Positions 1,169-64,000 of a stretch of 64,000 bases of DNA are shown piece after piece. The position numbers were made by a program, and so were the translations under genes. The stretch covers positions 13,659 to 77,658 of the forward strand of contig JBDGYW010000001.1 of the NCBI GenBank assembly GCA_039588935.1, written 5' to 3'. Each line of letters opens with the position of its first letter. The stretch's first letter is position 1. The notes under the pieces were generated by a model, which was given only the letters and a program-made list of their open reading frames with translations, was not told the origin of the DNA and made no database searches. Origin of the DNA: Gemmatimonadota bacterium (GTDB taxonomy: Bacteria > Gemmatimonadota > Gemmatimonadetes > Gemmatimonadales > GWC2-71-9).

Positions 1169-1390
1169 GTGATGCGACTGATCGACGCCAACACGGGTTA
1201 CGAGCCTAAAGCAGGCGAGACCTTCAAAAACGTCCTCGGCTACGTGACGATCCTGAAGGTGCGCGAGGGCATCTTCTCGGCCAAGGTGCTGGTCTCGATC
1301 AATGGCGATGACCCGCAGTGGTGGCCGCTCACCGTGCGCTACCTACACCCCGGCTTCCCGTTTCAGAAGGTCGGCTTCCTCAACAGCTAA
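1169..1390 (+). CDS. Hypothetical protein (73 aa)
   Basis: ORF track. GTG 1169 or ATG 1172 start. First ORF after the tRNA and convergent with 1387..2091(-). No domain recognised. Confidence 0.5.
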   Translation: MMRLIDANTGYEPKAGETFKNVLGYVTILKVREGIFSAKVLVSINGDDPQWWPLTVRYLHPGFPFQKVGFLNS

Positions 1391-2091
1391 AGCTCGACGA
1401 CCGCGGCGGAGCCGATGATCCGGTAGGGCCGCCCGCGTGCCTGGCAGAACCTCTTGAAGACATGGTGGGGCAAAGCGTTCTGATTCCACTCGTCCGGCCA
1501 ATCCCAGTCATCGCAGATGATGAGGCCGTGCTCGACCAGGTGGTTGGCGGCGAACTCGAGCTCCCACCTCATATTCGCCGCGCCGTGGTCGGAATCGTGA
1601 ATGAAGAGATCCCACGGCCCAGTTAGAGCCGCAAGTTCTGGGAGCACCTTCTTGCTCTCGCCGGCCAGGAAGGTGAATCGGTCAAAGCCATTGAAGCCCA
1701 GGGTGTCGCGGATGGCATCCATGGCCTGCTTCTGGCTGTAGTGCCTCGGGTCGCAGCTATACAGTGCGCCGTGTCCATTCCGATCGAGCGCGCGAAGGAC
1801 CAGGGACGCGCCCACACCGAAGCGCGTCCCTGTCTCGATGACCTTCTCGGGCCGGAGGATGCGGCAGATCGCATAGACGTAGTCCTGGTAGAGCAACGGC
1901 CCGTGGCTGTGCAGTCGCTTGTGGTCCGGGATCGCCTTGGCCTCGGCGAGAATCGGGCCCGGGTCGACATTGTGGCGGACGGCTAGGTCGCGAACGTAAT
2001 CCCAGTCACGCATCCGGCGAGAATAGCGCACCTTCGAGCGGTGAGGCCTGATGCAGATCGCGAGTCGGTTCGCAAGGAAAATCAGTTGCAT
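1387..2091 (-). CDS. Class I SAM-dependent methyltransferase (CmcI / O-MTase-like)
   Basis: ORF track 1387..2181 trimmed to ATG 2091 (ATG 2013 also possible) so the DnaA-box spacer stays non-coding. Motif I VIETGTRFGVGAS, then LFIHDSDHGAANMRWELE, as in Methyltransf_24/CmcI-type enzymes. Confidence 0.7.
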   Translation of the reverse strand: MQLIFLANRLAICIRPHRSKVRYSRRMRDWDYVRDLAVRHNVDPGPILAEAKAIPDHKRLHSHGPLLYQDYVYAICRILRPEKVIETGTRFGVGASLVLRALDRNGHGALYSCDPRHYSQKQAMDAIRDTLGFNGFDRFTFLAGESKKVLPELAALTGPWDLFIHDSDHGAANMRWELEFAANHLVEHGLIICDDWDWPDEWNQNALPHHVFKRFCQARGRPYRIIGSAAVVEL

Positions 2092-2126
2092 CTCCCACCA
2101 CCTGGTCGTGGAATTTTTCACCAAAG

Positions 2127-2146
2127 TTATCCACAGGTTATCCACA
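2127..2146 (+). promoter_or_regulatory. Two tandem perfect DnaA boxes TTATCCACA
   Basis: 2127-2135 and 2138-2146, 11 bp start to start. Flanked by GGAATTTTT repeats at 2110 and 2164, in the divergent MTase/XRE spacer. Confidence 0.6.
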
Positions 2147-2234
2147 CGGAATTTCGCGCACTTGGAATTTTTTCCCTCCACGTCGGCAGATAACTTGACC
2201 GGCCGTCACGAACCGTGTGAGATTACTATCCGTC

Positions 2235-2489
2235 ATGGAGGACGAGCCGTTGACCCAAGAGGAAGCTGCCCGCCTGCTCCGCGCTGAGCGGAAGCGAGCG
2301 AACCTCACACAGGACGAGATGGCGAAGGCCCTCGGCATCGGCCAGAGCCACTACAGCCTGCTGGAGCGCGGCAAGAGGCGCTACACCGTCGTCTACCTGA
2401 TGAGGGCGAAACGGAGACTTGGCGTCAGCTACGAATCTCTGCTGGGAGAGACCGAGGGGGACGAACAGAAATGCCACGCAGACGGGTAG
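2235..2489 (+). CDS. XRE / Cro-CI family helix-turn-helix regulator
   Basis: ORF track 2217..2489 with the start moved to ATG 2235 (MEDEPL). LTQDEMAKALGIGQSHYSLLERGKR is a canonical HTH_3 motif. Confidence 0.8.
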   Translation: MEDEPLTQEEAARLLRAERKRANLTQDEMAKALGIGQSHYSLLERGKRRYTVVYLMRAKRRLGVSYESLLGETEGDEQKCHADG

Positions 2490-18813: not shown

Positions 18814-20076
18814 ATGGCCAACCTGTTCACGAATCTTGCCGTGCCGGCCGGCGACGGCGTGGGCGCGTCTGTAGACACGCGGGCCTACGGTCGCAAGCGG
18901 ACTATCACAATCCAAGGGAATTTTGTCGCGACGCTAACGATCGAGTTCTCGCAGGACAACACCAACTTCTTTCCGCTGATGAGCTTTACTAATGCCGGCC
19001 GAAAGACGGTTGACATCGCAGCTGCGTACATGCGCGTTCGCAGATCAGGTACGGTCGGCGGCACAGCAAACGTCGATGTCGGCTCCGACGATTCCGGTGG
19101 CGAGTACGTTGCTCTCCCGGTTCCGGCCAACGATGGCGCCGGCGCAGCCGTAGACGTGCTTGCCTTCGGCACGTTCAACACGGTAGTGGCATCGGGGACG
19201 TTCACCGGAACGATCACCATCGAGATCAGCGAGGACAATACCGTCTGGGCTCAGAAGATGTCGTTCAATGGCCCGGTCTCCTGGGCCTCGATGGAGTTCG
19301 TGGCGCGCTACATGAGGGTGCGCCGTGTTGGGACTGATCCCCTCCTCCTCGGCACAGGAACCGTTTTCGTCGGCGCTATCAACGACGACAAGGTCGCTGC
19401 CGCACTCGGTTGGCTCGCAGCAACCGACGAAAAGGACAGCGCCTACAACGCGGTCCTGAACGACCTCGTTCAGTGTGACACGAGCGGTGGCGCGTTCAAC
19501 GTCACGCTGCCCCTGGCCGCTGCTTCGGCCGTGGTGACGCCGACGCGCACCTATGGCGGCCACATAGCCGTCAAGGTGACAACGGGCACCAATGTTGTCA
19601 ACGTCGTCCGGTCCGGTGCAGACACCATCGACGGTGCAACCAGCGTGAGCATCCCGGAGGATGGCTGCGTCATCTTCGTATCTGATGGGGTAAGCGCCTG
19701 GCGCATGGTCGCGATCAACCGCGAGACCATGCTCAACCAGGCCAATAACTATAGCGGCGACCAGGGAAGCGGCCCGATCGATCTGGTTGACGAGAACAAC
19801 TTCGCCACCCCTTGCGTTCAGGGTAACTACTTCCGCCTCACGGCCACCGGCAGCCACACGATGGCGGCGCCGACTGGCCCGACCGCCGGCCATACGTACA
19901 TGTGGCGCTTCGTTAGCTCGGGGGCCGGCCGCGTGATCACCTTTCCAGGGGCATTCAAGTTCCCGAATGGAGCTGGTTTCACAACGGGTAGCGGTGGGGC
20001 TGGCAGCGTTGACATCGTTACCGCTGCCTATAACGGGACCAACTTCGACTGCGTCGGGCAGCCGAATATGTCGTAG
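18814..20076 (+). CDS. Fibre/adhesin family member A (420 aa): tandem N-terminal beta-domains plus a fibre-like C-terminus
   Basis: ORF track. N-terminus MANLFTNLAVPAGDGVGA. Two ~90-aa repeats, each ending in YMRVRR.G. The C-terminal part (CDTSGGAFNVTLP...) resembles phage tail-fibre distal domains. Confidence 0.8.
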   Translation: MANLFTNLAVPAGDGVGASVDTRAYGRKRTITIQGNFVATLTIEFSQDNTNFFPLMSFTNAGRKTVDIAAAYMRVRRSGTVGGTANVDVGSDDSGGEYVALPVPANDGAGAAVDVLAFGTFNTVVASGTFTGTITIEISEDNTVWAQKMSFNGPVSWASMEFVARYMRVRRVGTDPLLLGTGTVFVGAINDDKVAAALGWLAATDEKDSAYNAVLNDLVQCDTSGGAFNVTLPLAAASAVVTPTRTYGGHIAVKVTTGTNVVNVVRSGADTIDGATSVSIPEDGCVIFVSDGVSAWRMVAINRETMLNQANNYSGDQGSGPIDLVDENNFATPCVQGNYFRLTATGSHTMAAPTGPTAGHTYMWRFVSSGAGRVITFPGAFKFPNGAGFTTGSGGAGSVDIVTAAYNGTNFDCVGQPNMS

Positions 20077-22135: not shown

Positions 22136-23518
22136 ATGGCAAATCTATTTTACAGTCTCGCCGTTCCTGCCGCCGATGGCGTAGGAGCCGGAACGAGCGT
22201 TTCAGCGGCCGGAAACAAGAAAACCATTTCCGTGACCGGCACCTGGGTCGGCACGATCACTGTCGAGGTGAGCATCGACGGTACCAACTACTTTCCCCTG
22301 AAGAGTTACACTCACCCGGACGAGATTACGGTGGATGCTCCGTGCGCAAATATGCGTGTTAGAAGATCCGGAACCCTGAGCGGCACCCCGGCCGTGGGGG
22401 TCTCCGCCGAAGACGACGGGACCGAGAGCAACACGCTGAACATGCCGGTTGCAGACGGGGTCGGAACGGCTATGGACGTCAGCGATTGGGGCAACACGGT
22501 TGGCCTGCTCTTGACTGGCACCTGGACCGGGACGGTGACGATCGAAATCAGCGAGGACGGCACGAGCTGGGCGCAGATCAAGAGTTTCACCGCGAATGAC
22601 TACGTGGTGATGACCTTCATCGCGAGGCGGATGCGCGTCCGTCGTTCGGGCAACAGCACCGGAACTCCGCAGGTGGACATTGCCGCTGGAAACGACGCGG
22701 ACACGCTCGTGAACATCTTCGGCGATGGCTCGGACGGCGACGTCACGCTCGGAAGCAACACCACGCTGACGCGCGATATGTACTACAACTCGCTGAGCAT
22801 GGCCGGCTACGACCTCACGACCGCTGGCTATCGGGTCTTTGTCAAGGAGTCTCTGCTCATCCCGGCGCTCTCGAGTATCCACAACTCGGGCGCTAGCGGC
22901 GTCGCTGACGCGGCCGGGGCTGCGGTCTCGGCCGCGATGCTCGGTGGCTCTGGTGCGGGTGGTGCAGGTCAGACAGGCGCTGGATCGGCCGGCGGTGCGA
23001 TCGCACAGTGCATTGGCGGCGCGGGCGGTGCAGGTGGCGCGGGCGGCGGCGGTGCCCAGGCTGGAGGCGCGGCCGGCGCCAAGACGGCGCCAACCGCCAC
23101 GGAGCCGCTCCCCCGTGCCCTTCCAGTCATTGCTCTCGGTCAGTACTTCACACCCGGTTCCAATCCCGACGTGCTCAAGGGTGGTACCGGAGGCGGCGGG
23201 GGTGGTGGTGACGGTGCGGCCGACGAAGGCGGCGGCGGCGGAAGCGGCGGCGGCGTCGTACTGGTCGCTGCCAACCGTATCGAGATCGCCGCGACTGGTT
23301 CAATCCAGTCGCGTGGTGGCAATGGCGCGGCTGGTACCGCGACGGGCTGTGGCGGCGGCGGTGGTGGTGGTGGCGGCAGCGTAATAGTCGTCTACCGCGC
23401 GCTTCAGAACGCCGGCTCGATCAACGCAACCGCCGGAAGTGGCGGAGCAAGCGGCGGCGGAACCGGAGCACAGGGTGCCTCAGGCAGCGACGGGAACATC
23501 TATCAGAATCAGGTCTAG
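22136..23518 (+). CDS. Fibre/adhesin family member B (460 aa) with a glycine-rich C-terminal domain
   Basis: ORF track. MANLFYSLAVPAADGVGA, two N-terminal repeats, then GDGSDGDVTL...YYNSL and long GGxGG tracts (glycine-rich beta-helix-like). Confidence 0.85.
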   Translation: MANLFYSLAVPAADGVGAGTSVSAAGNKKTISVTGTWVGTITVEVSIDGTNYFPLKSYTHPDEITVDAPCANMRVRRSGTLSGTPAVGVSAEDDGTESNTLNMPVADGVGTAMDVSDWGNTVGLLLTGTWTGTVTIEISEDGTSWAQIKSFTANDYVVMTFIARRMRVRRSGNSTGTPQVDIAAGNDADTLVNIFGDGSDGDVTLGSNTTLTRDMYYNSLSMAGYDLTTAGYRVFVKESLLIPALSSIHNSGASGVADAAGAAVSAAMLGGSGAGGAGQTGAGSAGGAIAQCIGGAGGAGGAGGGGAQAGGAAGAKTAPTATEPLPRALPVIALGQYFTPGSNPDVLKGGTGGGGGGGDGAADEGGGGGSGGGVVLVAANRIEIAATGSIQSRGGNGAAGTATGCGGGGGGGGGSVIVVYRALQNAGSINATAGSGGASGGGTGAQGASGSDGNIYQNQV

Positions 23519-23575: not shown

Positions 23576-24958
23576 ATGGCAAATCTCTTCTATAGTCTCG
23601 CCGTTCCTGCCGCCGATGGCACGGGGGCCTGGACCAATGTCGCAGCGTCCGGAACGAAGAAGACCATCAACGTTCAGGGAACCTGGGTCGGCACGATTAC
23701 CGTCGAGGTGACCAACGACGCTGGCACCGGCTACCACGCTCTCAAGTCCTTTACTTCGCCTGGTGAAGTGACGCTCGATGCGCCATGTCAGTCCATGCGC
23801 GTTCGTCGCAGCGGGACCGTCAGCGGCACGCCGACTGTCGGTGTGTCCGCCGAGGACGATGGCACGGAAGTCGCGAACCTGCCGGTATCGGCCGGTGATG
23901 GTGTCGGCGCTGGTGTCGATGTCTCCGACTACGGCAACACAATGTCGATCCTGATCGCCGGCACCTGGACGGGAGTCGTTACGATCGAGATCAGCGAGGA
24001 TGGCACCAACTGGGCGCAGATCAAGAGTTTCACCGCGAATGACTACGTGGTGATGACCTTCATCGCGAGGCAGATGCGCGTTCGGCGTTCGGGCAATAGC
24101 GGTGGGACTCCCAATGTGGACGTCGCCGCTGGCAACGACGCCGACACGCTGGTGAACCTGTTCGGTGACGGCTCGGACGGTGACGTGACGCTGGGCGCGC
24201 CAACCACGCTGACCCGCGACATGTACTACAACTCGCTAAACACGGGGGCCTTCGCCCTCAACTGCGCGGGCTACAGGGTCTTCGTCAAGGAAACCCTGAC
24301 TGTCGCAGCGGGCGGATCGATTCACCGCAACGGCAACGCGGCTGCGGCCGAAGTTGCTGGCGCTGCCCTGGCCGCGGCCATGCTTGGCAACTCGGGCGCT
24401 GGCGGAACGGGCGTGAGCGGCAACGGCGCGGCCGGTGGCGCGATTGCCCAGTGCATCGGTGGTGCCGGTGGCGCTGGCGGTACTGGAAACGGTGGGGCGA
24501 CTACGTCTGGCGCTGCTGGGGCTGCGACTGTCCCGACCGCGACAGAGCCGCTCCCACGCGCTCTGCCCGTGATGCTGCTCGGCCAGTACTTCACGCCTGG
24601 CGCTGCGCCTGACGTCCTGAAGGGCGGCTGCGGCGGCGGTAGCGGCGGTGGTGACGGCGCTGCCAACGAAGGCGGTGGCGGTGGCGGTGGCGGTGGCGTT
24701 GTTTTGATCGCGGCCAATAAGATCGACATCGTCGCAACCGGCTCGATCTCTGCGCAAGGCGGCGCCGGCGCTGCCGGAACCGCGGCCAACTGCGGCGGTG
24801 GTGGTGGCGGCGGCGGCGGTGGCATCATCCTCGTCTACCGCGCTCTACAGAACGCGGGTACCATCACGGTGGCTGGTGGCGCTCTCGGTGCTGGCGTATC
24901 CAACGGAACGGACGGAACTGCCGGCGCTGTCGGCGACATCTACCAGAACCAGGTCTAG
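23576..24958 (+). CDS. Fibre/adhesin family member C (460 aa), tandem duplicate of B
   Basis: ORF track. Collinear with 22136..23518 over the full length and contains a 62-bp run identical to B. Confidence 0.85.
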   Translation: MANLFYSLAVPAADGTGAWTNVAASGTKKTINVQGTWVGTITVEVTNDAGTGYHALKSFTSPGEVTLDAPCQSMRVRRSGTVSGTPTVGVSAEDDGTEVANLPVSAGDGVGAGVDVSDYGNTMSILIAGTWTGVVTIEISEDGTNWAQIKSFTANDYVVMTFIARQMRVRRSGNSGGTPNVDVAAGNDADTLVNLFGDGSDGDVTLGAPTTLTRDMYYNSLNTGAFALNCAGYRVFVKETLTVAAGGSIHRNGNAAAAEVAGAALAAAMLGNSGAGGTGVSGNGAAGGAIAQCIGGAGGAGGTGNGGATTSGAAGAATVPTATEPLPRALPVMLLGQYFTPGAAPDVLKGGCGGGSGGGDGAANEGGGGGGGGGVVLIAANKIDIVATGSISAQGGAGAAGTAANCGGGGGGGGGGIILVYRALQNAGTITVAGGALGAGVSNGTDGTAGAVGDIYQNQV

Positions 24959-46537: not shown

Positions 46538-47893
46538 CTAGTCGCTTAACTCCAGAATCGTGCCGAACCGTTGGGCTCGGTAGTGAAGGTCAGAGGAAAG
46601 AAGTGCCAGGTTCGCTGCTGGCGTCCCGGAACCCTTACCCGTGTCGTAGGTGTCCAGCACGTTGGTGCCTTCGCGGATCAAGTAAAGAAACAGGCAGGTC
46701 GATGGCGTTGGGCTGGCCGGCGCGTTGATCACTGCGATCTCCGCAATCTTGTGCTTGTAGATCTCGCCGTTAGCGACCGCCATCGTCGCTGTAAATGGCG
46801 TCCAACTAGCGACGGCTGGCACGGGTGAGAAGTTGACCGGTGCCCAGGTGTAGTAGCCGGAGAAGTAGGCGTTCTCAGTGGACGCTGGATCGGCAAGCGG
46901 CATGACGTGGAGATGGACGCGAACAGCAGTCGTTGTCCTCCACTTGTGGGGAAGCTGGTAGACGTAGTGCAGGCTGTCGTCCTGGTCATGCCGAAAATGG
47001 AGCAGGAGGAGCGCCGTGTCGCGAAACACCTCTTGCGTCAGCGCCGCAGCGCGGTTGCCGATGTCGGGAGCGCCTATGAGGTCGTCCCAGCGGCCCTGCG
47101 TCTGGGCGATCCAATAGCCACCGTCCTGGGCGGCGATGATCTCGAGCCCATCTGGCGTGTACGGGCCGCCGAGTTTGGTGAGCGTGTAGAGGTCGTCCAT
47201 GGTGCGAACGTAAGCGACCGAGCCGTCCTTGAGAGGGTCGGAGTTTACGTTTCCAAGCGCAGTCACGTCCTCGACATTGATGAGCGTCTCTCCGTCGTTG
47301 CCGGACACGGGCGGGTTGACGGCCACGGTGTAGACAACAGGCGTGCCGCTGCTTCCACCGCTTCGTCTGACGCGCATGTACTGCGCGACGATCGATCTAC
47401 TGAAGTGCCCGGGCTCTGCGAAGCTCTCGATTTCCTGCCATGCCGTGTTGTCCTGGCTGATCTCAATATGGACCGTGCCCGCAGTCAGGGTGCCCCCAAT
47501 GACAACCGTATTGAAGGTGCCGAGGGCACTCACGTCGGAAGCTGCGCCCGCACCGTCTCCGGCGGGCACGACGAGCTGGGCATACTGAGTGCCGTCGTTC
47601 GTTGCACCTACATCCACGTTCGCAGTCAGGACCATGCCGGTGCCGGCGAGAAATCCAGAGATGCGAACGCGCATGTAGCGCGCAGCGAGCTCAAAGGTCT
47701 TCTGCCCTGGTTTCGAGAAGGTCCAGAGCGGTCGCCAGTTCGCGTTGTCCGGCGAGAATTCGATCGTGAGCGCGGGGCCGGAGAGGCCGCCGCCGATTGT
47801 AATCGTCTTGACGCGCCCCATAATGGACACATCAGTCGACGCACCGACGCCATCGGCGGCGGGTACGGCGAGGTTGACGAAAACGTTCGACAC
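46538..47893 (-). CDS. Fibre/adhesin family member D (451 aa)
   Basis: ORF track. GTG start. MSNVFVNLAVPAADGVGAS, the same two N-terminal repeats (YMRVRISG / YMRVRRSG), and a unique C-terminal ~250 aa. Confidence 0.85.
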   Translation of the reverse strand: MSNVFVNLAVPAADGVGASTDVSIMGRVKTITIGGGLSGPALTIEFSPDNANWRPLWTFSKPGQKTFELAARYMRVRISGFLAGTGMVLTANVDVGATNDGTQYAQLVVPAGDGAGAASDVSALGTFNTVVIGGTLTAGTVHIEISQDNTAWQEIESFAEPGHFSRSIVAQYMRVRRSGGSSGTPVVYTVAVNPPVSGNDGETLINVEDVTALGNVNSDPLKDGSVAYVRTMDDLYTLTKLGGPYTPDGLEIIAAQDGGYWIAQTQGRWDDLIGAPDIGNRAAALTQEVFRDTALLLLHFRHDQDDSLHYVYQLPHKWRTTTAVRVHLHVMPLADPASTENAYFSGYYTWAPVNFSPVPAVASWTPFTATMAVANGEIYKHKIAEIAVINAPASPTPSTCLFLYLIREGTNVLDTYDTGKGSGTPAANLALLSSDLHYRAQRFGTILELSD

Positions 47894-47987: not shown

Positions 47988-48569
47988 CTACTGGACGTCT
48001 CGGGTCTGGAGGCCGTCGATCATGAACATGATGACCTTCTGGTCATCGGTCGCACCGCTGTTCAGGATCGTCAGCGCGTTCGTCGCCCCGATCGCGAAGA
48101 ACTCCATGTTCACGTTGAAGTTCTGGCGCACGGGCACGACGATGGGACGGGCCAGCTTGAGGATCGCCTCCTGGCTCGGTTCACCGAGGTTGAAGATCGA
48201 AGTCGCGCTGGTGCCGTCGAAGCCCCAGAGGCCGCCGCCCGTCGGTACGTACCAGATGGGCGCCTGGAACTGAGGCTTATCGCCCAAATTCAAGGTGAAG
48301 TACAGCTGCGAGGTGACCTGCACGTAGTTCTGGCGATGGTTGGTGCCCTCGAAGAAGAGGTAGCAACGTAGCGACAGAATCACATATGTTTGATCCGATG
48401 CCAACTGGCCAGCCACCTGCAGATTGGTGAGTGCTAGCGTCCCCACGTTGGCGTTGCCAAACAGTCGGGTGCTCGCACCGATCGCGGTTGCGGGGTTGCC
48501 AGTGGTGCGGACGAGGGTGTCCCAGAAGGGCTGGTGGCGGCGTTCGCGTACGCCATGAAGTCTCGGCAT
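47988..48569 (-). CDS. Candidate major capsid protein, small beta-rich (193 aa)
   Basis: ORF track. AGGAGAGAAAA-ATG RBS. Dyad copy upstream and a strong terminator downstream. Beta-strand-like alternating pattern (TYVILSLRCYLFF, LYFTLNL, FNVNMEFFAIG). The function is inferred. Confidence 0.6.
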   Translation of the reverse strand: MPRLHGVRERRHQPFWDTLVRTTGNPATAIGASTRLFGNANVGTLALTNLQVAGQLASDQTYVILSLRCYLFFEGTNHRQNYVQVTSQLYFTLNLGDKPQFQAPIWYVPTGGGLWGFDGTSATSIFNLGEPSQEAILKLARPIVVPVRQNFNVNMEFFAIGATNALTILNSGATDDQKVIMFMIDGLQTRDVQ

Positions 48570-54363: not shown

Positions 54364-56070
54364 TCATGTTTCTTCTACCGGAGAGTCGTCGGGAGGGGTC
54401 TCGGGGTCGCCGAGGTCGTCGGGAAGGTCGTCGGTCAGATCGTCTGGAGCCTCTTCGTCTGGCTCCTCCGCTGGCTCTGGCTCCTCACTGATTTCGCCAG
54501 TGAGCAGGAACTCGGCGACCTGCCTGACCCAAACTCGACCGGGTACCGTCGCAAGCGGCGAGCCCGTCTGTATTTTAGCCATCTTACCAAGGAAGACGTC
54601 AACCCCGAGCCGACGCAGGCCGTCGAGAATGTCGTCCGGCAGCATGTTGCGTGCCGTAGCGGCAAAGACGGCAGGAGGCGTGTTATTTCGGATAGCTGTC
54701 TCCATGAAGGCCACGGCCTTGGCCATGTCCTCGTCGGAAACCTCAGGGATTTCGGGCTCGCCGGCCGCGCGGCGCGCCTCCCTCTCGGCCTGTTTGGCAG
54801 CCTGCTGCTCGCGCATCTTGTCCACCACGCCCTTGGGCATCTCGACGACCCGACCGTCCTGGAGGCGCACCTGCACGAGCTGCTCGTCCTCTTCCCCCTC
54901 CGCCCCTACTCCGGCCGCCGCCCCTGCGACGCGCCCGGCGATGGCTCCGGCAATCGGCGAGTTCGTGACCATTTCCAGTGCGCGCTCCCATCCGGCCTTG
55001 TCGCCGCCGCCGCTTGGCACCAGGGCCTCGAAGGCTTCCTTGACGGTCACGAGATTCTGGATCTGATCGATTGGCCCCTGCTCCTTTCGCGTGCGGAGCG
55101 CGACTGTCTCGGTCTCGGCCTTGTTGACCTCGCGCTCCAGACGCTTCTGGATGTCCCTTAGTCCATCGATCCGCATCTCGAATCCGTGCCGCTGGGAGTC
55201 CATCGCCTGCTGGTGCGCCGACTTCAGAGTATGAACTTCTCGCTGGCAGGCCGATCGGACCTCAGCGAGTTCTCGCTCAAAGCGAGCCTCATAGCGCTTC
55301 AGCTCCTCGAGGTGGAAGTCTTCACGCCGCGCCATCCTCGCCTCGTACTGCTGGCGGATCGCTTCCAAATTGTTGGAGTGCGTGGCTTCCTTGCTCTCCA
55401 TGATCCCGAACAGGCGCTCCTGGCCGGTGTTGTCGGGCTCCTTGTTGAGAGCCTCAACCAGGCGGTCGTCCTTGTCGGCCAGGCGCTCGCGGAGTGCCTT
55501 CATCTCCTCGCGCATCGGGGCGAGGATCAACTCCAACATCTCCAGGTCCTTACCTCCGCTATCGGCGCGGCTATCACGGAGTTGTCGCGCTTCTTCGCGG
55601 GATTCACGTACTTGCTGGGTCATGACGTTCATCGCCTGGCTCGCGAGGCCCTGATTCTCGCCGTTGCTGCTCGCCTGCTGCTCGTCTTCTTCGTCGTCGG
55701 CGTTGAGTAGGGAGTCCAGTTTTGGCGCTCCGGCAACGTCGAAGGTCCGACCCTCGATGTAGCCCCACCGACGTTTCTTGGTCTTCGGGTCCCTGCGGTA
55801 GCCCTCGACCCGAATCTGGAACTTGCCACCACCGTGTTCTTCCTTGATGCGATCGACGGTGACCGGTTCCTGGTAGGTTTCGAGTGCGCCGTCGACCTTC
55901 ACGCCGCGGTGTTTCGTCGGCGACAGGCGTGCGAGCCGCACCTTGATTTCGCCCGTGGCCCCGAACTGCTGGATCCACTCGTAGAGATCCTTGTCGGTTT
56001 CGCGCTGGATGTCACCGATCGGGTCATCCTTCGCGTCTGGTTCGTCAGTCTTTTGCGTCGTCGCTGCCAT
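54364..56070 (-). CDS. Large coiled-coil protein with an acidic C-terminus (568 aa), scaffold-like (inference)
   Basis: ORF track 54364..56112. ATG 56070 (MAATTQ) preferred. About 250 aa of heptad-like E/R/K/L sequence and a D/E/P-rich tail. Confidence 0.7.
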   Translation of the reverse strand: MAATTQKTDEPDAKDDPIGDIQRETDKDLYEWIQQFGATGEIKVRLARLSPTKHRGVKVDGALETYQEPVTVDRIKEEHGGGKFQIRVEGYRRDPKTKKRRWGYIEGRTFDVAGAPKLDSLLNADDEEDEQQASSNGENQGLASQAMNVMTQQVRESREEARQLRDSRADSGGKDLEMLELILAPMREEMKALRERLADKDDRLVEALNKEPDNTGQERLFGIMESKEATHSNNLEAIRQQYEARMARREDFHLEELKRYEARFERELAEVRSACQREVHTLKSAHQQAMDSQRHGFEMRIDGLRDIQKRLEREVNKAETETVALRTRKEQGPIDQIQNLVTVKEAFEALVPSGGGDKAGWERALEMVTNSPIAGAIAGRVAGAAAGVGAEGEEDEQLVQVRLQDGRVVEMPKGVVDKMREQQAAKQAEREARRAAGEPEIPEVSDEDMAKAVAFMETAIRNNTPPAVFAATARNMLPDDILDGLRRLGVDVFLGKMAKIQTGSPLATVPGRVWVRQVAEFLLTGEISEEPEPAEEPDEEAPDDLTDDLPDDLGDPETPPDDSPVEET

Positions 56071-56497
56071 CGGGCTCCTCCTCCTCCTCGTCCTCTTCTT
56101 CCACCAGAACATCGTCGACCATCTGGATCATGACGGCCGCCGAGTCACGGAAGGTCTGGATGAGCATCATCAGCTCTGGCTCGGGTGGATTCTCTGGGCT
56201 CGCACCCTTGGTCGCGTACTCGCAGAGCTGCATGCCGAGCGCAACCGTTGTTTGAATTCGGGCCGCGAGCCGTTGATGGATTCGATCATCGCTGCCGGTG
56301 ATCATCTCCGCGACTGCTCCCTCGCAGAGGTCTAGCCGCTCATTGACGTTCTTCTCCAGCTTGGCTTGGCTCTGCGCGAGCAGTTTCAGGAGCGGGTAGA
56401 CATTTCCGAGAAACTCGGCCTTCTGATCGATGATCGCGGCGTTACTCAGCCTGCTGATCGACGCATCGATCTCCGTCTGAATCGTCTCTGCTTTCAT
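56045..56497 (-). CDS. Hypothetical acidic helical protein (150 aa)
   Basis: Tail of track ORF 56045..56785. ATG 56497 behind GGAGGACGA (56503-56511). Confidence 0.65.
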   Translation of the reverse strand: MKAETIQTEIDASISRLSNAAIIDQKAEFLGNVYPLLKLLAQSQAKLEKNVNERLDLCEGAVAEMITGSDDRIHQRLAARIQTTVALGMQLCEYATKGASPENPPEPELMMLIQTFRDSAAVMIQMVDDVLVEEEDEEEEEPDGSDDAKD

Positions 56498-57011
56498 TCT
56501 CGTCGTCCTCCTCCTCGTCGTCGTCCAGGTCGAGGTCGTCGTCCAGGTCGGGCAAGTCCGTTGGACGTACGGGTCGGTGTTTCGGGTGCTGGGCGAAGTA
56601 CTTCTTGCGCCGCTTCTCCAGCTTGCGCAGCTCGCGCTTGGTGAACGGATCCCAGCGGTCACAGTCCAGGACTGGCGAATCTCCTGATAGCTCCAGGTAG
56701 ACGCCTGGCTGGATGATGCAGCAGCGGTGATGTTCTTGTGGCCGGTAGTCCTCGAGCCCGAGGGCCTCGAAGGTACCGCCCGCATTGCCGTGATCGAAGT
56801 GCGACATGACGTGTAGGTAGTAGCGGCAGTTTCGCTCGCAGGGGCAGTTCTGTGGGGTGTGGGGTGGCCCTGGCTCCGGCGGACTGATGAGGTTCACGGC
56901 CTCCGGCGTTGGGCCTCCGTCCGGCGCGGGCGGTCCCCAGGTCGCTGGCTCCCCCTCTTCGAGTGCTCCGGCAGGTCGAGCTACCCCATCAGGATCATCG
57001 TGTCCCTTCAT
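56442..57011 (-). CDS. First gene of the leftward array: Cys/His-rich N-half, basic then poly-acidic C-half (189 aa)
   Basis: ORF track 56442..57032 trimmed to ATG 57011 behind GGAAGGAGATCC. Overlaps the next gene by 56 nt. Confidence 0.6.
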   Translation of the reverse strand: MKGHDDPDGVARPAGALEEGEPATWGPPAPDGGPTPEAVNLISPPEPGPPHTPQNCPCERNCRYYLHVMSHFDHGNAGGTFEALGLEDYRPQEHHRCCIIQPGVYLELSGDSPVLDCDRWDPFTKRELRKLEKRRKKYFAQHPKHRPVRPTDLPDLDDDLDLDDDEEEDDENESRDDSDGDRCVDQQAE

Positions 57012-57047
57012 GGATCTCCTTCCGCCGGCCAATGTACACGACCTGAG

Positions 57048-57060
57048 TTCAGACTCGCAA
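57048..57060. promoter_or_regulatory. 13-bp dyad copy TTCAGACTCGCAA
   Basis: 37 nt upstream of ATG 57011 (opposite strand). Confidence 0.6.
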
Positions 57061-57066
57061 GCACCC

Positions 57067-57122
57067 CCCGCAGTTCAGCCGCACATTATCTGCAAAAGAT
57101 CCGCAGATCACCCGCAGTTCAG
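57067..57122 (+). repeat. 12-bp direct repeat CCCGCAGTTCAG x2 flanking the small palindrome ATCTGC-N9-GCAGAT
   Basis: Copies at 57067-57078 and 57111-57122. Confidence 0.7.
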
Positions 57123-57208
57123 ATGACAGTCGGGCGTCTCTGACTTTGAAGACGACCGAGGGATGCGTCTCGCGCCGTTCCTGCGGGCCGCAAGACGCAC
57201 CTCTCCCG

Positions 57209-57638
57209 CCCGGTTTTGAGCCGTCTTACCGGGGCCCGCAACCACCGGAATCCGCAGGGTCAGCGGCCAGGGCCCGCGGTCGCACCGGGGACACCCCCAC
57301 CGGGAGGCACAAAAACCGACATGTCGGATACGCTCGCCCGGTGGCCACCCGTAGCAAGAACTATGCCAGCCCGGTTTAGACTCGCAATCGCCCCACACCA
57401 GCCTACACTGGCCCCGGTTGAGGATTCGTCACTTCCCGGTGAGAATTCACCACAAATCCGGTGAAAAGTTGACACCTACAGGTAGGCGCCCGGTGATTAC
57501 GCGGGGTTACCCGGTTGGTCCCCGGATTGCACTACCCTTGGTTGGACCCATGTCCCACCTTTACCGACAGCTGGCCCCGGTGGCCAGTTCCCGCCCCCCG
57601 GTAACGCGCTGCGTTACCCCTGGTGTGGGCCCCGGTGC
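57209..57638 (+). repeat. Array of 12 same-orientation CCCGGT-type hexamers, preceded by 4 inverted copies
   Basis: Direct copies start at 57209, 57337, 57370, 57413, 57435, 57457 (TCCGGT), 57489, 57510, 57521 (CCCGGA), 57576, 57597 and 57631. Inverted ACCGGR copies start at 57228, 57244, 57284 and 57299. Confidence 0.8.
57375..57387. promoter_or_regulatory. 13-bp dyad copy TTTAGACTCGCAA
   Basis: Inside the non-coding control region, overlapping CCCGGT copy 57370. Confidence 0.6.
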
Positions 57639-57670
57639 AATGGGTGGGGAATTGTCCTGCATCCCCGGGC

Positions 57671-57782
57671 GCGCCCCATGCGCCCCACGACGCGCCCCGA
57701 CCGACCGCCCCCCCGCGGTCAGCGGTCGGGCCCCGCGCGCGTCGTGGGGCCTGTGGGGGGCCCCACGGGGGCCTGTGGGGGG
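57671..57782 (+). repeat. G/C-rich direct repeats: GCGCCCC x3 and GGGGCCTGTGGGGGG x2
   Basis: GCGCCCC at 57671, 57680 and 57692. GGGGCCTGTGGGGGG at 57746-57760 and 57768-57782. A partial inverted copy CCCCCACAGG lies near 57861. Confidence 0.75.
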
Positions 57783-57896
57783 CGCGTTGCCCCCTACCCC
57801 TACCGCGCAACTCGACGCGACGCGGCAACTGTAGGGGTTTGTCATACATGCCGCAACCGTCCCCCACAGGGGGGCGGCGATAGGAGGGTTCTGCAA

Positions 57897-58160
57897 ATGT
57901 CCGATACCAAGAAGTCCGATACCAAGAAGTCCGACAGCGAGACTACCCTGGCAAAGGCTCCCGCTCTGTTGTCAGAGGTACGCCCGGCCCGCGTGATTGC
58001 CGCGGACGCGGTTCTTTTCGCCCCGGTGGGGGACGGTTCCGTTTCCGTCGAAATCAGCGGTTCCGACCTGAAACGGCTGACGCTGCGCGCCCTGTCGGCC
58101 GAATTCGTGCGGCCCGGCGTTCGCGCCGCTGTCGAAGCCTGGAAGGCCTCCAAGAAGTAG
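57897..58160 (+). CDS. Hypothetical protein (87 aa) with an N-terminal SDTKK tandem repeat
   Basis: ORF track 57678..58160 trimmed to ATG 57897 behind TAGGAGGG. Followed by a strong terminator. Confidence 0.6.
   Translation: MSDTKKSDTKKSDSETTLAKAPALLSEVRPARVIAADAVLFAPVGDGSVSVEISGSDLKRLTLRALSAEFVRPGVRAAVEAWKASKK
57900..57929 (+). repeat. Perfect 15-bp tandem duplication TCCGATACCAAGAAG x2
   Basis: Codons 2-11 of CDS 57897..58160. A third partial copy follows. Confidence 0.85.
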
Positions 58161-58200: not shown

Positions 58201-58232
58201 GGCCCGCCCCTTACCGGGGGGCGGGCCTTTTT
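58201..58232 (+). terminator. Rho-independent terminator
   Basis: GGCCCGCCCC (58201-58210) pairs with GGGGCGGGCC (58218-58227), followed by TTTTT (58228-58232). Confidence 0.75.
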
Positions 58233-63509: not shown

Positions 63510-64000
63510 AAGCGCGCGATCTGCGTCGCAATCTCACGATTCCGGTTGCGGCTGCCATCATCGCTTCCCGGTTTCGACCGCTATCCAAACCGGGAAAGAT
63601 GCCGGGATTTGCATGGGGAATCCCTGCATTTCAGTGTAAGCGAGGTGAGCAACTAGCGCAGGAACCGGGAACGGTGTGCCATGCCTGCTATGCGCGAATC
63701 GGATGGTACTGTGCGCGCAATGTCGCCAAGACCCAGTACGCTCGCATGGAGGGTCTCGCGCATCCCCGCTGGGCCGACGCGATGACTTACCTCATCAAGC
63801 ATTGCGTCGATGGCTGGTTTCGCTGGTTCGATAGCGGAGATCTGCAGTCCCTCGGGCACCTGGCGCAAGTCGTTCGCATCTGCGAGGACACGCCGAAGAT
63901 CCGACACTGGCTTCCCACCCACGAGCCGTACATGATTGGCGACTTCCTGGACCAGGGCGGCGAGTTCCCGCCGAACCTCTGCATCAGGATTTCTGCCGAC
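63468..64000 (+). CDS. GP88-family protein, N-terminal 177 aa (runs off the right edge)
   Basis: Absent from the ORF track because it has no stop in the window. ATG 63468 behind GAGGAGGAGGA. My translation contains ...IPAFQCKRGEQLAQEPGTVCHACYARIGWYCARNV...FRWFDSGDLQSLGHL...RHWLPTHEP, the pattern I associate with the phage gene-product-88 domain. Confidence 0.6.

Follow-up and report, generated by a model that had tools for sequence, protein, structure and literature searches.

The stretch of DNA analyzed here, referred to as the window, comprises 64,000 nucleotides of contig JBDGYW010000001.1 and belongs to a phage-like, unclassified element, one of a family of ∼70- to 80-kb elements. According to a GC3-based gene caller, genes lie on the plus strand from 1.2 to 25.2 kb, on the minus strand from 25.4 to 57.0 kb, and on the plus strand again from 57.9 kb; given this layout, an 885-bp gap, running between start codons at 57011 (ATG, leftward) and 57897 (ATG, rightward), is the sole divergence point of two long gene blocks. 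Within this gap lies a short word repeated many times. A conserved array of ∼16 putative protein-binding sites, 12 of them on one face of the helix, is established from the sequence, and we describe below the array, its surroundings, and the functions it may serve. The gap itself is defined as follows.

57012 to 57896, no strand: divergent non-coding gap that separates the virion operon, read leftward, from the early module, read rightward, as judged from gene layout, the absence of frame-specific conservation, and the gaps of relatives.

The same divergent gap is found in the same place in seven relatives, designated L003, L005, L006, L007, L010, L011, and L015, which are 27 to 66% identical in a neighboring protein. 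The 582-amino-acid protein encoded at 54364 to 56112 has homologues at 32 to 66% identity, including some on contigs of 78.6 and 79.2 kb; the window itself is part of an 80.6-kb contig. Known phages and plasmids (INPHARED and PLSDB) gave no DNA similarity and no match to the 582-residue protein. GTDB genomes gave one truncated match, and IMG/VR, searched with two proteins and two profiles, yielded no relatives. The gaps of the relatives have these lengths.

L003: 927 bp
L005: 926 bp
L006: 872 bp
L010: 946 bp
L011: 898 bp
L007: 582 bp
L015 (a distant relative): 572 bp

An initial annotation of this DNA had placed the borders of the region at the same two ATGs and had seen no credible open reading frame (ORF) between them, and both statements held. 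Hidden coding sequence was considered and rejected: in a six-frame tblastn comparison with the relatives all frames match alike, so the matches reflect conservation of DNA rather than of a reading frame. ARAGORN detected no tRNA in the gap, and there was no Rfam match in it.

The repeated word is CCCGGT. Ten exact plus-strand copies, half of the 20 in the window, fall within 57209 to 57636 (starts at 57209, 57337, 57370, 57413, 57435, 57489, 57510, 57576, 57597, and 57631), and one-mismatch copies occupy two further plus-strand positions (TCCGGT at 57457 and CCCGGA at 57521). The initial annotation had listed 12 copies; its positions are all correct, although only 10 of the copies are exact. 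On the minus strand, 3 of the 20 exact copies in the window lie within 57228 to 57304, as ACCGGG at 57228, 57284, and 57299; with the one-mismatch ACCGGA at 57244, these are the four inverted copies noted earlier at the left of the array. With both strands counted, shuffled 64-kb sequence contains 42.6 matches, which amounts to ∼0.3 on each strand of an 885-bp gap, in line with the earlier estimate of well under one, and ten copies are therefore not a chance outcome.

Across the main array the same-strand sites are 11 to 55 bp apart and not contiguous. The 12 same-strand sites are phased with a period of 10.8 bp (resultant, 0.93), in agreement with the earlier proposal that they share one helical face. 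A periodicity no better than chance, which the initial annotation had named among the grounds for abandoning its reading, was not what we found: none of 2,000 random placements, with the period free between 8 and 14 bp, matched the phasing score. The four inverted sites are out of phase (resultant, 0.19). The orientation of the word flips at 57316 to 57327, the position of a palindrome, CCGACATGTCGG; because the sites to its left are mostly inverted, the word on either side reads CCCGGT in the sense in which the neighboring genes run. The individual sites, apart from those within the core units and the near-site at 57521, which are given further below, are listed here together with the flip point.

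57209 to 57214, plus strand: CCCGGT site forming an inverted pair with 57228; the CCGGT...ACCGGG pair is also present in L011 and L003.
57228 to 57233, minus strand: inverted site within CTTACCGGGG; CTTACCGGG is conserved in the window, L011, L003, and L005.
57244 to 57249, minus strand: inverted near-site ACCGGA (motif scan).
57284 to 57289, minus strand: inverted site ACCGGG, at the same relative position in L011 and L003.
57299 to 57304, minus strand: inverted site ACCGGG, at the same relative position in L011 and L003.
57316 to 57327, no strand: 12-bp perfect palindrome CCGACATGTCGG, the flip point of site orientation, partly conserved in L011 and L003.
57337 to 57342, plus strand: CCCGGT site at the predicted P_L start point (see below); a site is present here in all five close relatives.
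57370 to 57375, plus strand: CCCGGT site abutting the P_L −24 element (motif scan and alignment).
57413 to 57418, plus strand: CCCGGT site (motif scan).
57489 to 57494, plus strand: CCCGGTGA site (motif scan).
57510 to 57515, plus strand: CCCGGT site abutting the P_R −24 element (motif scan).
57576 to 57581, plus strand: CCCGGT site (motif scan).
57597 to 57602, plus strand: CCCGGT site (motif scan).
57631 to 57636, plus strand: CCCGGT site (motif scan).

Outside the array, intergenic copies of the word occur only in the rightward early module, at 58213, 58267, 63567, 63589, and 63664. The last three (63567 on the plus strand, 63589 and 63664 on the minus strand) make up a second small cluster, in the region 63510 to 63672 upstream of a GP88-like gene; the cluster is followed by CCGGGATTTGCAT, a sequence resembling the −12 part of P_R. 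The equivalent intergenic region is absent from L003 and L005.

The word is also enriched in the relatives, (C)CCCGGTG(A) ranking first in each gap. When 7-mers were counted over the eight gaps and compared with flanking DNA, the top words were CCCCGGT (30-fold; 34 copies), CCCGGTG (19-fold; 30 copies, present in all eight gaps), and CCGGTGA (15-fold). Motif density is maximal in the gap for all scanned loci but one, in a scan made without L015; in L003 the density of CCCGGT/ACCGGG peaks in the gap, while the looser CCCGG/CCGGG count peaks in adjacent genes. Site positions nearly coincide among the window, L011, and L003, and the columns occupied by sites in the window are better conserved than the rest of the array span in five of five aligned relatives (for instance, 0.72 versus 0.52 in L011, 0.76 versus 0.51 in L003, and 0.47 versus 0.30 in L010). 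The best period, searched between 10.0 and 11.6 bp, is 10.65 to 11.05 bp in all eight gaps. Because motif, site columns, and period are all conserved among relatives, both the sites and their helical register are under selection. In the gap of the distant relative (L015:9429 to 10000), the array word takes the form CGGTGATC, and most sites overlap a GATC, so that binding in this relative could be influenced by Dam methylation; a Dam-type methylase is encoded in the genome of the window itself.

Two promoter-like motifs are interleaved with the array. The sigma-54 consensus is TGGCAC-N5-7-TTGCT, and sigma-54 regulons exist in Planctomycetota (PMC12316311). Motifs scoring at least 10/12 against it number only 6 in the whole window on both strands (128 kb). 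The following two promoter predictions lie in the gap.

57368 to 57353, minus strand: P_L, predicted sigma-54-type −24/−12 motif TGGCAT-AGTTC-TTGCT = TGGCATAGTTCTTGCT, scoring 10/12.
57516 to 57531, plus strand: P_R, predicted sigma-54-type motif TGGTCC-CCGGA-TTGCA = TGGTCCCCGGATTGCA, scoring 9/12.

In L011, L003, L005, and L006, the P_L position scores 10 to 11/12 and the P_R position scores 8 to 11/12. Both dinucleotides (GG-N10-GC) and their spacing are kept in five relatives at P_L and P_R while the spacer varies; the P_L spacer of L006 is wholly different, with GGCAT and TTGCT retained, and alignment A2 shows an invariant GG in P_R. A rightward motif scoring 10/12 is present in each of L010 and L007. 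P_L and P_R stand back-to-back, ∼175 to 200 bp apart, on either side of the array core, with predicted start points near 57342 and 57542, respectively. Array sites abut both −24 elements (57370 at P_L and 57510 at P_R), another lies at the P_L start point (57337), and the near-site CCCGGA (57521 to 57526) falls within the P_R spacer. Since the array brackets and overlaps conserved sigma-54-type motifs and contains palindromes particular to each relative, control of transcription is the function that we favor.

One form of such control would be a shared enhancer, on which a host-encoded AAA+ enhancer-binding protein occupies the central repeats and activates P_L and P_R by DNA looping, with no occlusion. 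The geometry agrees with this: the central 22-bp units lie ∼85 to 115 bp upstream of both predicted start points of the back-to-back −24/−12 motifs, and in L010 the sites are followed by an AT-rich (bendable) stretch and then by the −24/−12 motif. Looping activators typically depend on the face of the helix, and divergent sigma-54 promoters with shared upstream sites are known (zraP-zraSR and hyc-hyp). The distribution of the sites, on the other hand, is unusual for enhancer-binding proteins in that they run into and past both promoters, and they are mostly direct repeats rather than the usual dyads. The parts of the element that were searched contain no enhancer-binding protein gene, so a host protein would be needed. 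The motif is also kept in L015, with no clear −24/−12 motif, and in elements binned to different phyla. We regard a shared enhancer as improbable.

The center of the array has a structure of its own, consisting of tandem 22-bp units of the form CCGGTGArrATTCAmCAC, two in the window and three in L011, L003, and L005. The units share an 18-bp core, whereas the remaining array sites share CCCGGT(G) only; in the window, the two full units start at 57435 and 57457 and are followed by a third, partial site at 57489.

57435 to 57456, plus strand: 22-bp core unit 1, CCCGGTGAGAATTCACCACAAA, which holds the dyad GGTGA-N4-TCACC; equivalents are present in L011, L003, and L005.
57457 to 57478, plus strand: 22-bp core unit 2, TCCGGTGAAAAGTTGACACCTA, in the AT-richest 40 bp of the gap (repeat and GC scans).
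57473 to 57488, no strand: palindrome CACCTACAGGTAGGCG; CCTACATGTAGG is present in L011.

The 7-mer ACCTACA, found at this last palindrome, is 19-fold enriched and occurs in seven of the eight gaps. The core zone is the least GC-rich part of every gap but that of L011, at 42% GC in the window and 15% GC over 40 bp in L010.

These units call for consideration of an iteron origin, at which an initiator would bind the 22-bp units and the phased half-sites, wrap the DNA, and open the AT-richer center; replication would be bidirectional and co-oriented with the diverging gene blocks, and a regulatory role could coexist with it. Two or three tandem units with an 18-bp shared core, every plus-strand site on one helical face, and the GC minimum of the core zone would all suit such an origin, as would the position of the gap, the one place in the genome where its two transcription blocks diverge. 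The orientation flip at 57316 to 57327 recalls the origin oriC of E. coli, where arrays of DnaA sites are oppositely oriented. Cumulative GC skew, one of the checks that the initial annotation had suggested, is lowest at 58 to 59 kb, near the gap, and highest near 24 to 25 kb, although it is confounded by gene orientation.

Such cores can indeed be iterons, as an unrelated sequence shows. An IMG/VR scan with the pattern CCGGTGA-N15-CCGGTGA, designed for exactly that, returned mostly single chance matches and no relatives. It picked up the viral contig L021 (IMG/VR 3300048833_000097) only because this contig matches the pattern; positions 1050 to 1220 of L021 hold seven tandem 22- to 23-bp iterons, GGTCACCCGGTGACC (CACCCGGTGA), inside a lambda-O-like ORF, the N-terminal part of which resembles a winged-helix initiator; the layout is lambda-O-like, with the origin within the gene. 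In the window, by contrast, no initiator, helicase, or primase gene is adjacent by comparison with Pfam, PHROG, and PDB; the only helicase-loader match is weak and 12.7 kb away, and family-wide conservation is seen for the motif but not for the first three rightward proteins. No DnaA box with fewer than two mismatches was detected; the matches to TTATCCACA all have two, and none of them is conserved. The "AT-rich" center of the window is still 42% GC, there are only two or three full iterons, and the other sites share 6 to 7 bp, are irregularly spaced, and overlap the promoter motifs. In our assessment an iteron origin is doubtful, though likelier than the other alternatives to regulation.

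Around the array lie other repeats and candidate control elements. Perfect 12- to 18-bp palindromes occur in the gaps, each relative having its own set. The further repeats described in the initial annotation were all found again: the 12-bp direct repeat CCCGCAGTTCAG (57067 and 57111), GCGCCCC in three copies within 57671 to 57698, the pair GGGGCCTGTGGGGGGC (57746 and 57768) with the complementary CCCCCACAGG at 57861, and the two dyad copies, which belong to a 21-nucleotide repeat pair (57047 and 57374) with 86% identity. A scan of the gap with the sigma-70 consensus returned 0 matches. The remaining features are as follows.

57374 to 57394, plus strand: second copy of GTTYAGACTCGCAA... (repeat D1), the first copy of which is at 57047 to 57067; TTGCGAGTC-like elements are present in L005 and L006.
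57031 to 57060, minus strand: candidate proximal sigma-70-like leftward promoter, TTGCGA-N18-TACATT, read by eye and not picked up by the consensus scanner; both hexamers are retained in L011 with a different spacer.
57663 to 57783, plus strand: GC-rich block with a 33-nucleotide imperfect inverted repeat (57663 to 57695 and 57737 to 57769) and the two copies of GGGGCCTGTGGGGGGC (repeat scan).
57811 to 57848, plus strand: conserved block CTYGACGCGACGCGGCAACTGTAGGGGTTT..CATACA beside the first rightward gene, a promoter or operator candidate, near-identical in L011 and L003 and partially so in L005.
57857 to 57877, plus strand: stem-loop with a 9-bp stem, placed just ahead (by a few nucleotides) of the first rightward gene's ribosome-binding site (comparison with relatives).

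A hairpin occurs at this last position in six of eight relatives, with a different sequence in each. Pairing at the RNA level between the G-rich repeats (57746 and 57768) and this hairpin, suggested by joint changes in the window and L003, was considered and dropped because L011 does not support it. The presumed rightward leader (57541 to 57900) is very GC-rich, and its predicted fold is more stable than that of shuffled sequence (z = −4.8). Directly after the first rightward gene (87 amino acids) is a strong intrinsic terminator (58201 to 58232) with a 10-bp GC stem, the loop TTACCGG, in which the array word recurs, and a run of TTTTT; it may thus make the first early gene a short transcription unit by itself, or an attenuated one. 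An equivalent hairpin and T-run follow the homologue of this gene in L003.

For candidate binders and machinery, gene content was searched over the 64-kb window and the next 12 kb (98 window ORFs; L012/L013), with ∼4 to 5 kb of the genome outside. Matches to Pfam and PHROGs comprise GP88, DUF5131, Dam and C5 methylases, a Cro/CI-type helix-turn-helix (HTH) protein, an HNH endonuclease, the weak helicase loader, a glycosyltransferase, ArdC-N, and Acb2/Tad1. Genes for a terminase, ParA, an integrase, or an initiator were not recognized with Pfam or PHROGs, and the proteins flanking the gap gave nothing useful against Pfam, PHROG, or PDB sequences. An attP site was set aside, there being no integrase found and the contigs lacking host flanks. 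An oriT was likewise discounted, as neither a relaxase gene nor type IV secretion genes were detected and a Walker A motif is absent from the large ORFs.

The leftward operon starts with genes for a four-cysteine protein, an acidic helical protein, and a tail fibre/BppU-like protein. The first gene (56442 to 57011, minus strand) encodes a 189-residue protein in which C58, C62, C98, and C117 are invariant and which also has an RWDP motif, a basic helix, and an acidic tail. All relatives carry it, and its homologues number more than 234, many of them on 68- to 80-kb contigs; the family has no Pfam match. The first two leftward ORFs overlap by 56 nucleotides in different frames (56442 to 56497), and both products are acidic-tailed. 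The AlphaFold model of the 582-residue protein (pLDDT 70) shows a beta-sandwich followed by a 135-residue helix, with no significant fold match in the PDB and weak BFVD matches to tail fibre/BppU proteins. To the right, the first three proteins match no protein family and lack conservation among the elements, and a homologue search with the third (313 amino acids) retrieved only itself.

A second candidate is a ParB/KorB-like protein of 326 amino acids, encoded ∼14 kb to the right of the array (L012:10752 to 11732). It has ParB_N, HTH_ParB, and KorB domains and the motif GGRRLRA, an intact GxxRxxA; a 32%-identical homologue is present in the distant L015, and no ParA gene is nearby, making it an orphan. 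The window genome and L015 share only the left-module proteins and this ParB-like protein, and L015 keeps CCCGGTGA sites, which makes a conserved binder encoded by the element likelier than a variable early protein.

The array could be a centromere-like or loading site for the ParB/KorB-like CTPase-type protein, serving plasmid-like partition or a spreading sliding clamp. The encoded protein and its distant homologue agree with such a platform, as do the repeated array of putative binding sites, expected of a partition centromere, and the GTGAAA held by the core sites, which resembles parS or a P1 boxA half-site. The 68- to 80-kb contigs have ends that differ relative to the array in the two readable relatives, as would fit a circular or permuted genome. 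ParB-family clamps are also known to regulate on mobile elements, as with KorB (PMC11790492) and BisD (PMC12409273). Arguing the other way, there is no ParA, ParM, or TubZ gene in the 64 kb and the next 12 kb, and no ribbon-helix-helix or ParR gene was recognized, while the ParB-like gene itself is distant. Known sites of ParB, KorB, and BisD are a few palindromes of 13 to 23 bp, as opposed to the 16 asymmetric heptamers found here, and it is CCGG, rather than GTGAAA, that is invariant in the motif. We consider a role as a partition or loading platform quite unlikely.

The array immediately precedes the gene that opens the virion operon, a position that raises one more alternative, a pac site bound by the small terminase at the head of a late operon. 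SPP1 pacL and lambda cosB also contain phased short repeats, and the varying contig ends suggest a permuted, headful-packaged genome. Nevertheless, besides the want of a recognized terminase in the window and the next 12 kb, the leftward operon starts with the proteins described above and not with packaging genes, and the HNH endonuclease gene, often a terminase neighbor, is at 16 kb. The contigs of two relatives also end away from the array (L003 ends ∼11.5 kb off, and L015 starts 11.4 kb off); L001, a short contig of the window's own sequence, ends inside the array at ∼57475. A pac site therefore seems highly improbable.

We return to the regulatory reading, according to which the array carries a protein-DNA complex that gates the early and virion modules; we assign it a probability of roughly 40%. 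It ranks first because the sites are positionally tied to conserved promoter motifs on both sides, because the gap has relative-specific palindromes of the sort typical of operators, because the intergenic motif copies outside the array are all in the early module, and because no replication, partition, or packaging gene is adjacent. We infer protein binding, the use of the −24/−12 motifs, the identity of the binder, and the direction of regulation as follows. A single DNA-binding protein, sequence specific and encoded by the element, would occupy the ∼16 sites. Binding would nucleate at the strong sites, namely, the two or three 22-bp units in the center with their CCGGTGA core; the weaker CCCGGT sites, whole 10.8-bp turns away, would then fill cooperatively, so that protein lines one face of ∼430 bp. 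Such a complex would bracket and overlap the back-to-back P_L, serving the virion/tail operon, and P_R, serving the early, anti-defense, and replication module. Site occupancy would gate both modules, most likely via occlusion or silencing, and the relative-specific palindromes and proximal sigma-70-like promoters may add control. The candidate binders are the four-cysteine protein and the ParB/KorB-like protein.

Several observations weigh against this regulatory complex. P_L and P_R are promoter predictions, the gap of L015 has no convincing −24/−12 motif, and neither the 98 window ORFs nor the next 12 kb include a Sigma54_activat protein. Among the element's proteins there are only candidates for the binder: the AlphaFold model of the four-cysteine protein (moderate, at pLDDT 68) matches no PDB or DNA-binding fold, and the ParB-like gene is distant, with known ParB-family proteins loading on palindromes. 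The 10.8-bp phasing is only weak in L005. The bins of the relatives are labeled Planctomycetota, Deltaproteobacteria, and Actinomycetota, which leaves the host uncertain. Finally, the 22-bp tandem core, the AT-richer center, and the skew minimum fit an origin too, and the two roles could coexist. A more specific proposal, which we hold to be rather unlikely, is a sigma-54-dependent viral master switch, in which an operator protein of a previously undescribed kind, either the four-cysteine protein or the orphan ParB-CTPase, would polymerize on the phased CCCGGTG array and gate both promoters across the element family. In the literature searched, no report was found of a phage with sigma-54-dependent main promoters or of a sigma-54 phage switch, which is not proof of absence. 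From the initial annotation's interpretation, a phased putative protein-binding array in a divergent control region stands, given the enrichment, the phasing, and the conservation in seven relatives; none of the functions that it had offered (origin, centromere, and pac site) was demonstrated, the origin being the likeliest of the three.

Other loci of the element deserve mention. Four fibre-like proteins (18814 to 20076, 22136 to 23518, and 23576 to 24958 on the plus strand; 46538 to 47893 on the minus strand) share an N-terminal domain of ∼60 to 250 amino acids and look like a set of exchangeable receptor-binding proteins flanking the convergence point at ∼25.3 kb. A 193-residue protein (47988 to 48569, minus strand) is 95% identical to its homologue in L003, with neighbors at ∼55%, indicating either unusually strong constraint or recent gene exchange. 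A gene for a 90-residue Cro/CI-type HTH protein (2217 to 2489, plus strand) diverges from a methyltransferase gene (1387 to 2181, minus strand), and the element may have a second control point at this locus; positions 1053 to 1128 hold a tRNA-Val gene.

Helically phased arrays of short repeats in divergent regions are already known from origins, centromeres, and operators. Iteron origins include lambda ori and those of the plasmids pSC101, R6K, and P1 (oriR). The present array is like them in its directly repeated tandem units, which have a 22-bp spacing, a conserved core, and one helical face, and in having the least GC-rich DNA at or beside the repeats and early genes alongside. It is unlike them in that there are only two or three full units, the other sites being 6 to 7 bp at irregular whole-turn spacings, and in that no Rep or O-type gene is adjacent or overlapping, DnaA boxes are missing, and promoter motifs are overlapped. 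Short-repeat centromeres and operators, such as R1 parC (ten 11-bp repeats), the omega heptads of pSM19035, and pB171 parC, likewise have many copies of a 6- to 11-bp word, direct or inverted, at helical-turn spacing in a promoter region that doubles as an operator. The sites here differ in being non-contiguous, and no ParM/ParA partner was recognized; at 11 to 55 bp apart, and with no ribbon-helix-helix protein recognized, they do not form an omega/MetJ-type heptad operator. The ParB/KorB-like protein resembles KorB (PMC11790492) and BisD (PMC12409273) in its ParB_N, HTH_ParB, and KorB-like domains, intact GxxRxxA, and family-wide conservation. KorB and BisD load on a few palindromes of 13 to 23 bp, whereas the word here is asymmetric, in ∼16 copies, and 14 kb from the gene.

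Closer to the promoters, divergent sigma-54 pairs with shared upstream sites are exemplified by zraP-zraSR and hyc-hyp of E. coli and nifHDK-nifJ of Klebsiella. The two back-to-back GG-N10-GC motifs, with repeats centered between them at about −85 to −115, follow that pattern; the differences are that an enhancer-binding protein gene was not found, the heptamers are direct rather than dyads, and the promoters are also covered. In the early/late region of phi29, divergent promoters lie under a multimeric, helically periodic protein complex that switches between them (p4 and p6). The likeness lies in divergent early and late promoters within one short region and in the periodic complex proposed here. 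The phi29 system differs in that p6 has little sequence specificity and a 24-bp period and the promoters are of the sigma-A type, and there is no sequence or protein homology. The stoperators of mycobacteriophage L5 are asymmetric repressor sites oriented along transcription and scattered through the genome; here, too, CCCGGT is oriented with transcription to the left and to the right of the flip point, although the sites are clustered and phased in one gap. The novelty lies in the motif and its lineage, in its pairing with sigma-54-type promoters, and in the candidate binders. The lineage represents little-known viruses that appear to infect Planctomycetota. If the regulatory reading is true, it offers a defined operator word and two candidate proteins for the study of gene control; if the origin reading is true, the array is the replicator of the lineage. 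What sets the array apart from the known systems is a heptamer conserved across a large family of ∼70- to 80-kb elements and interleaved with two conserved sigma-54-type promoter motifs, with an uncharacterized four-cysteine protein and an orphan ParB-like CTPase as its sole conserved candidate binders.

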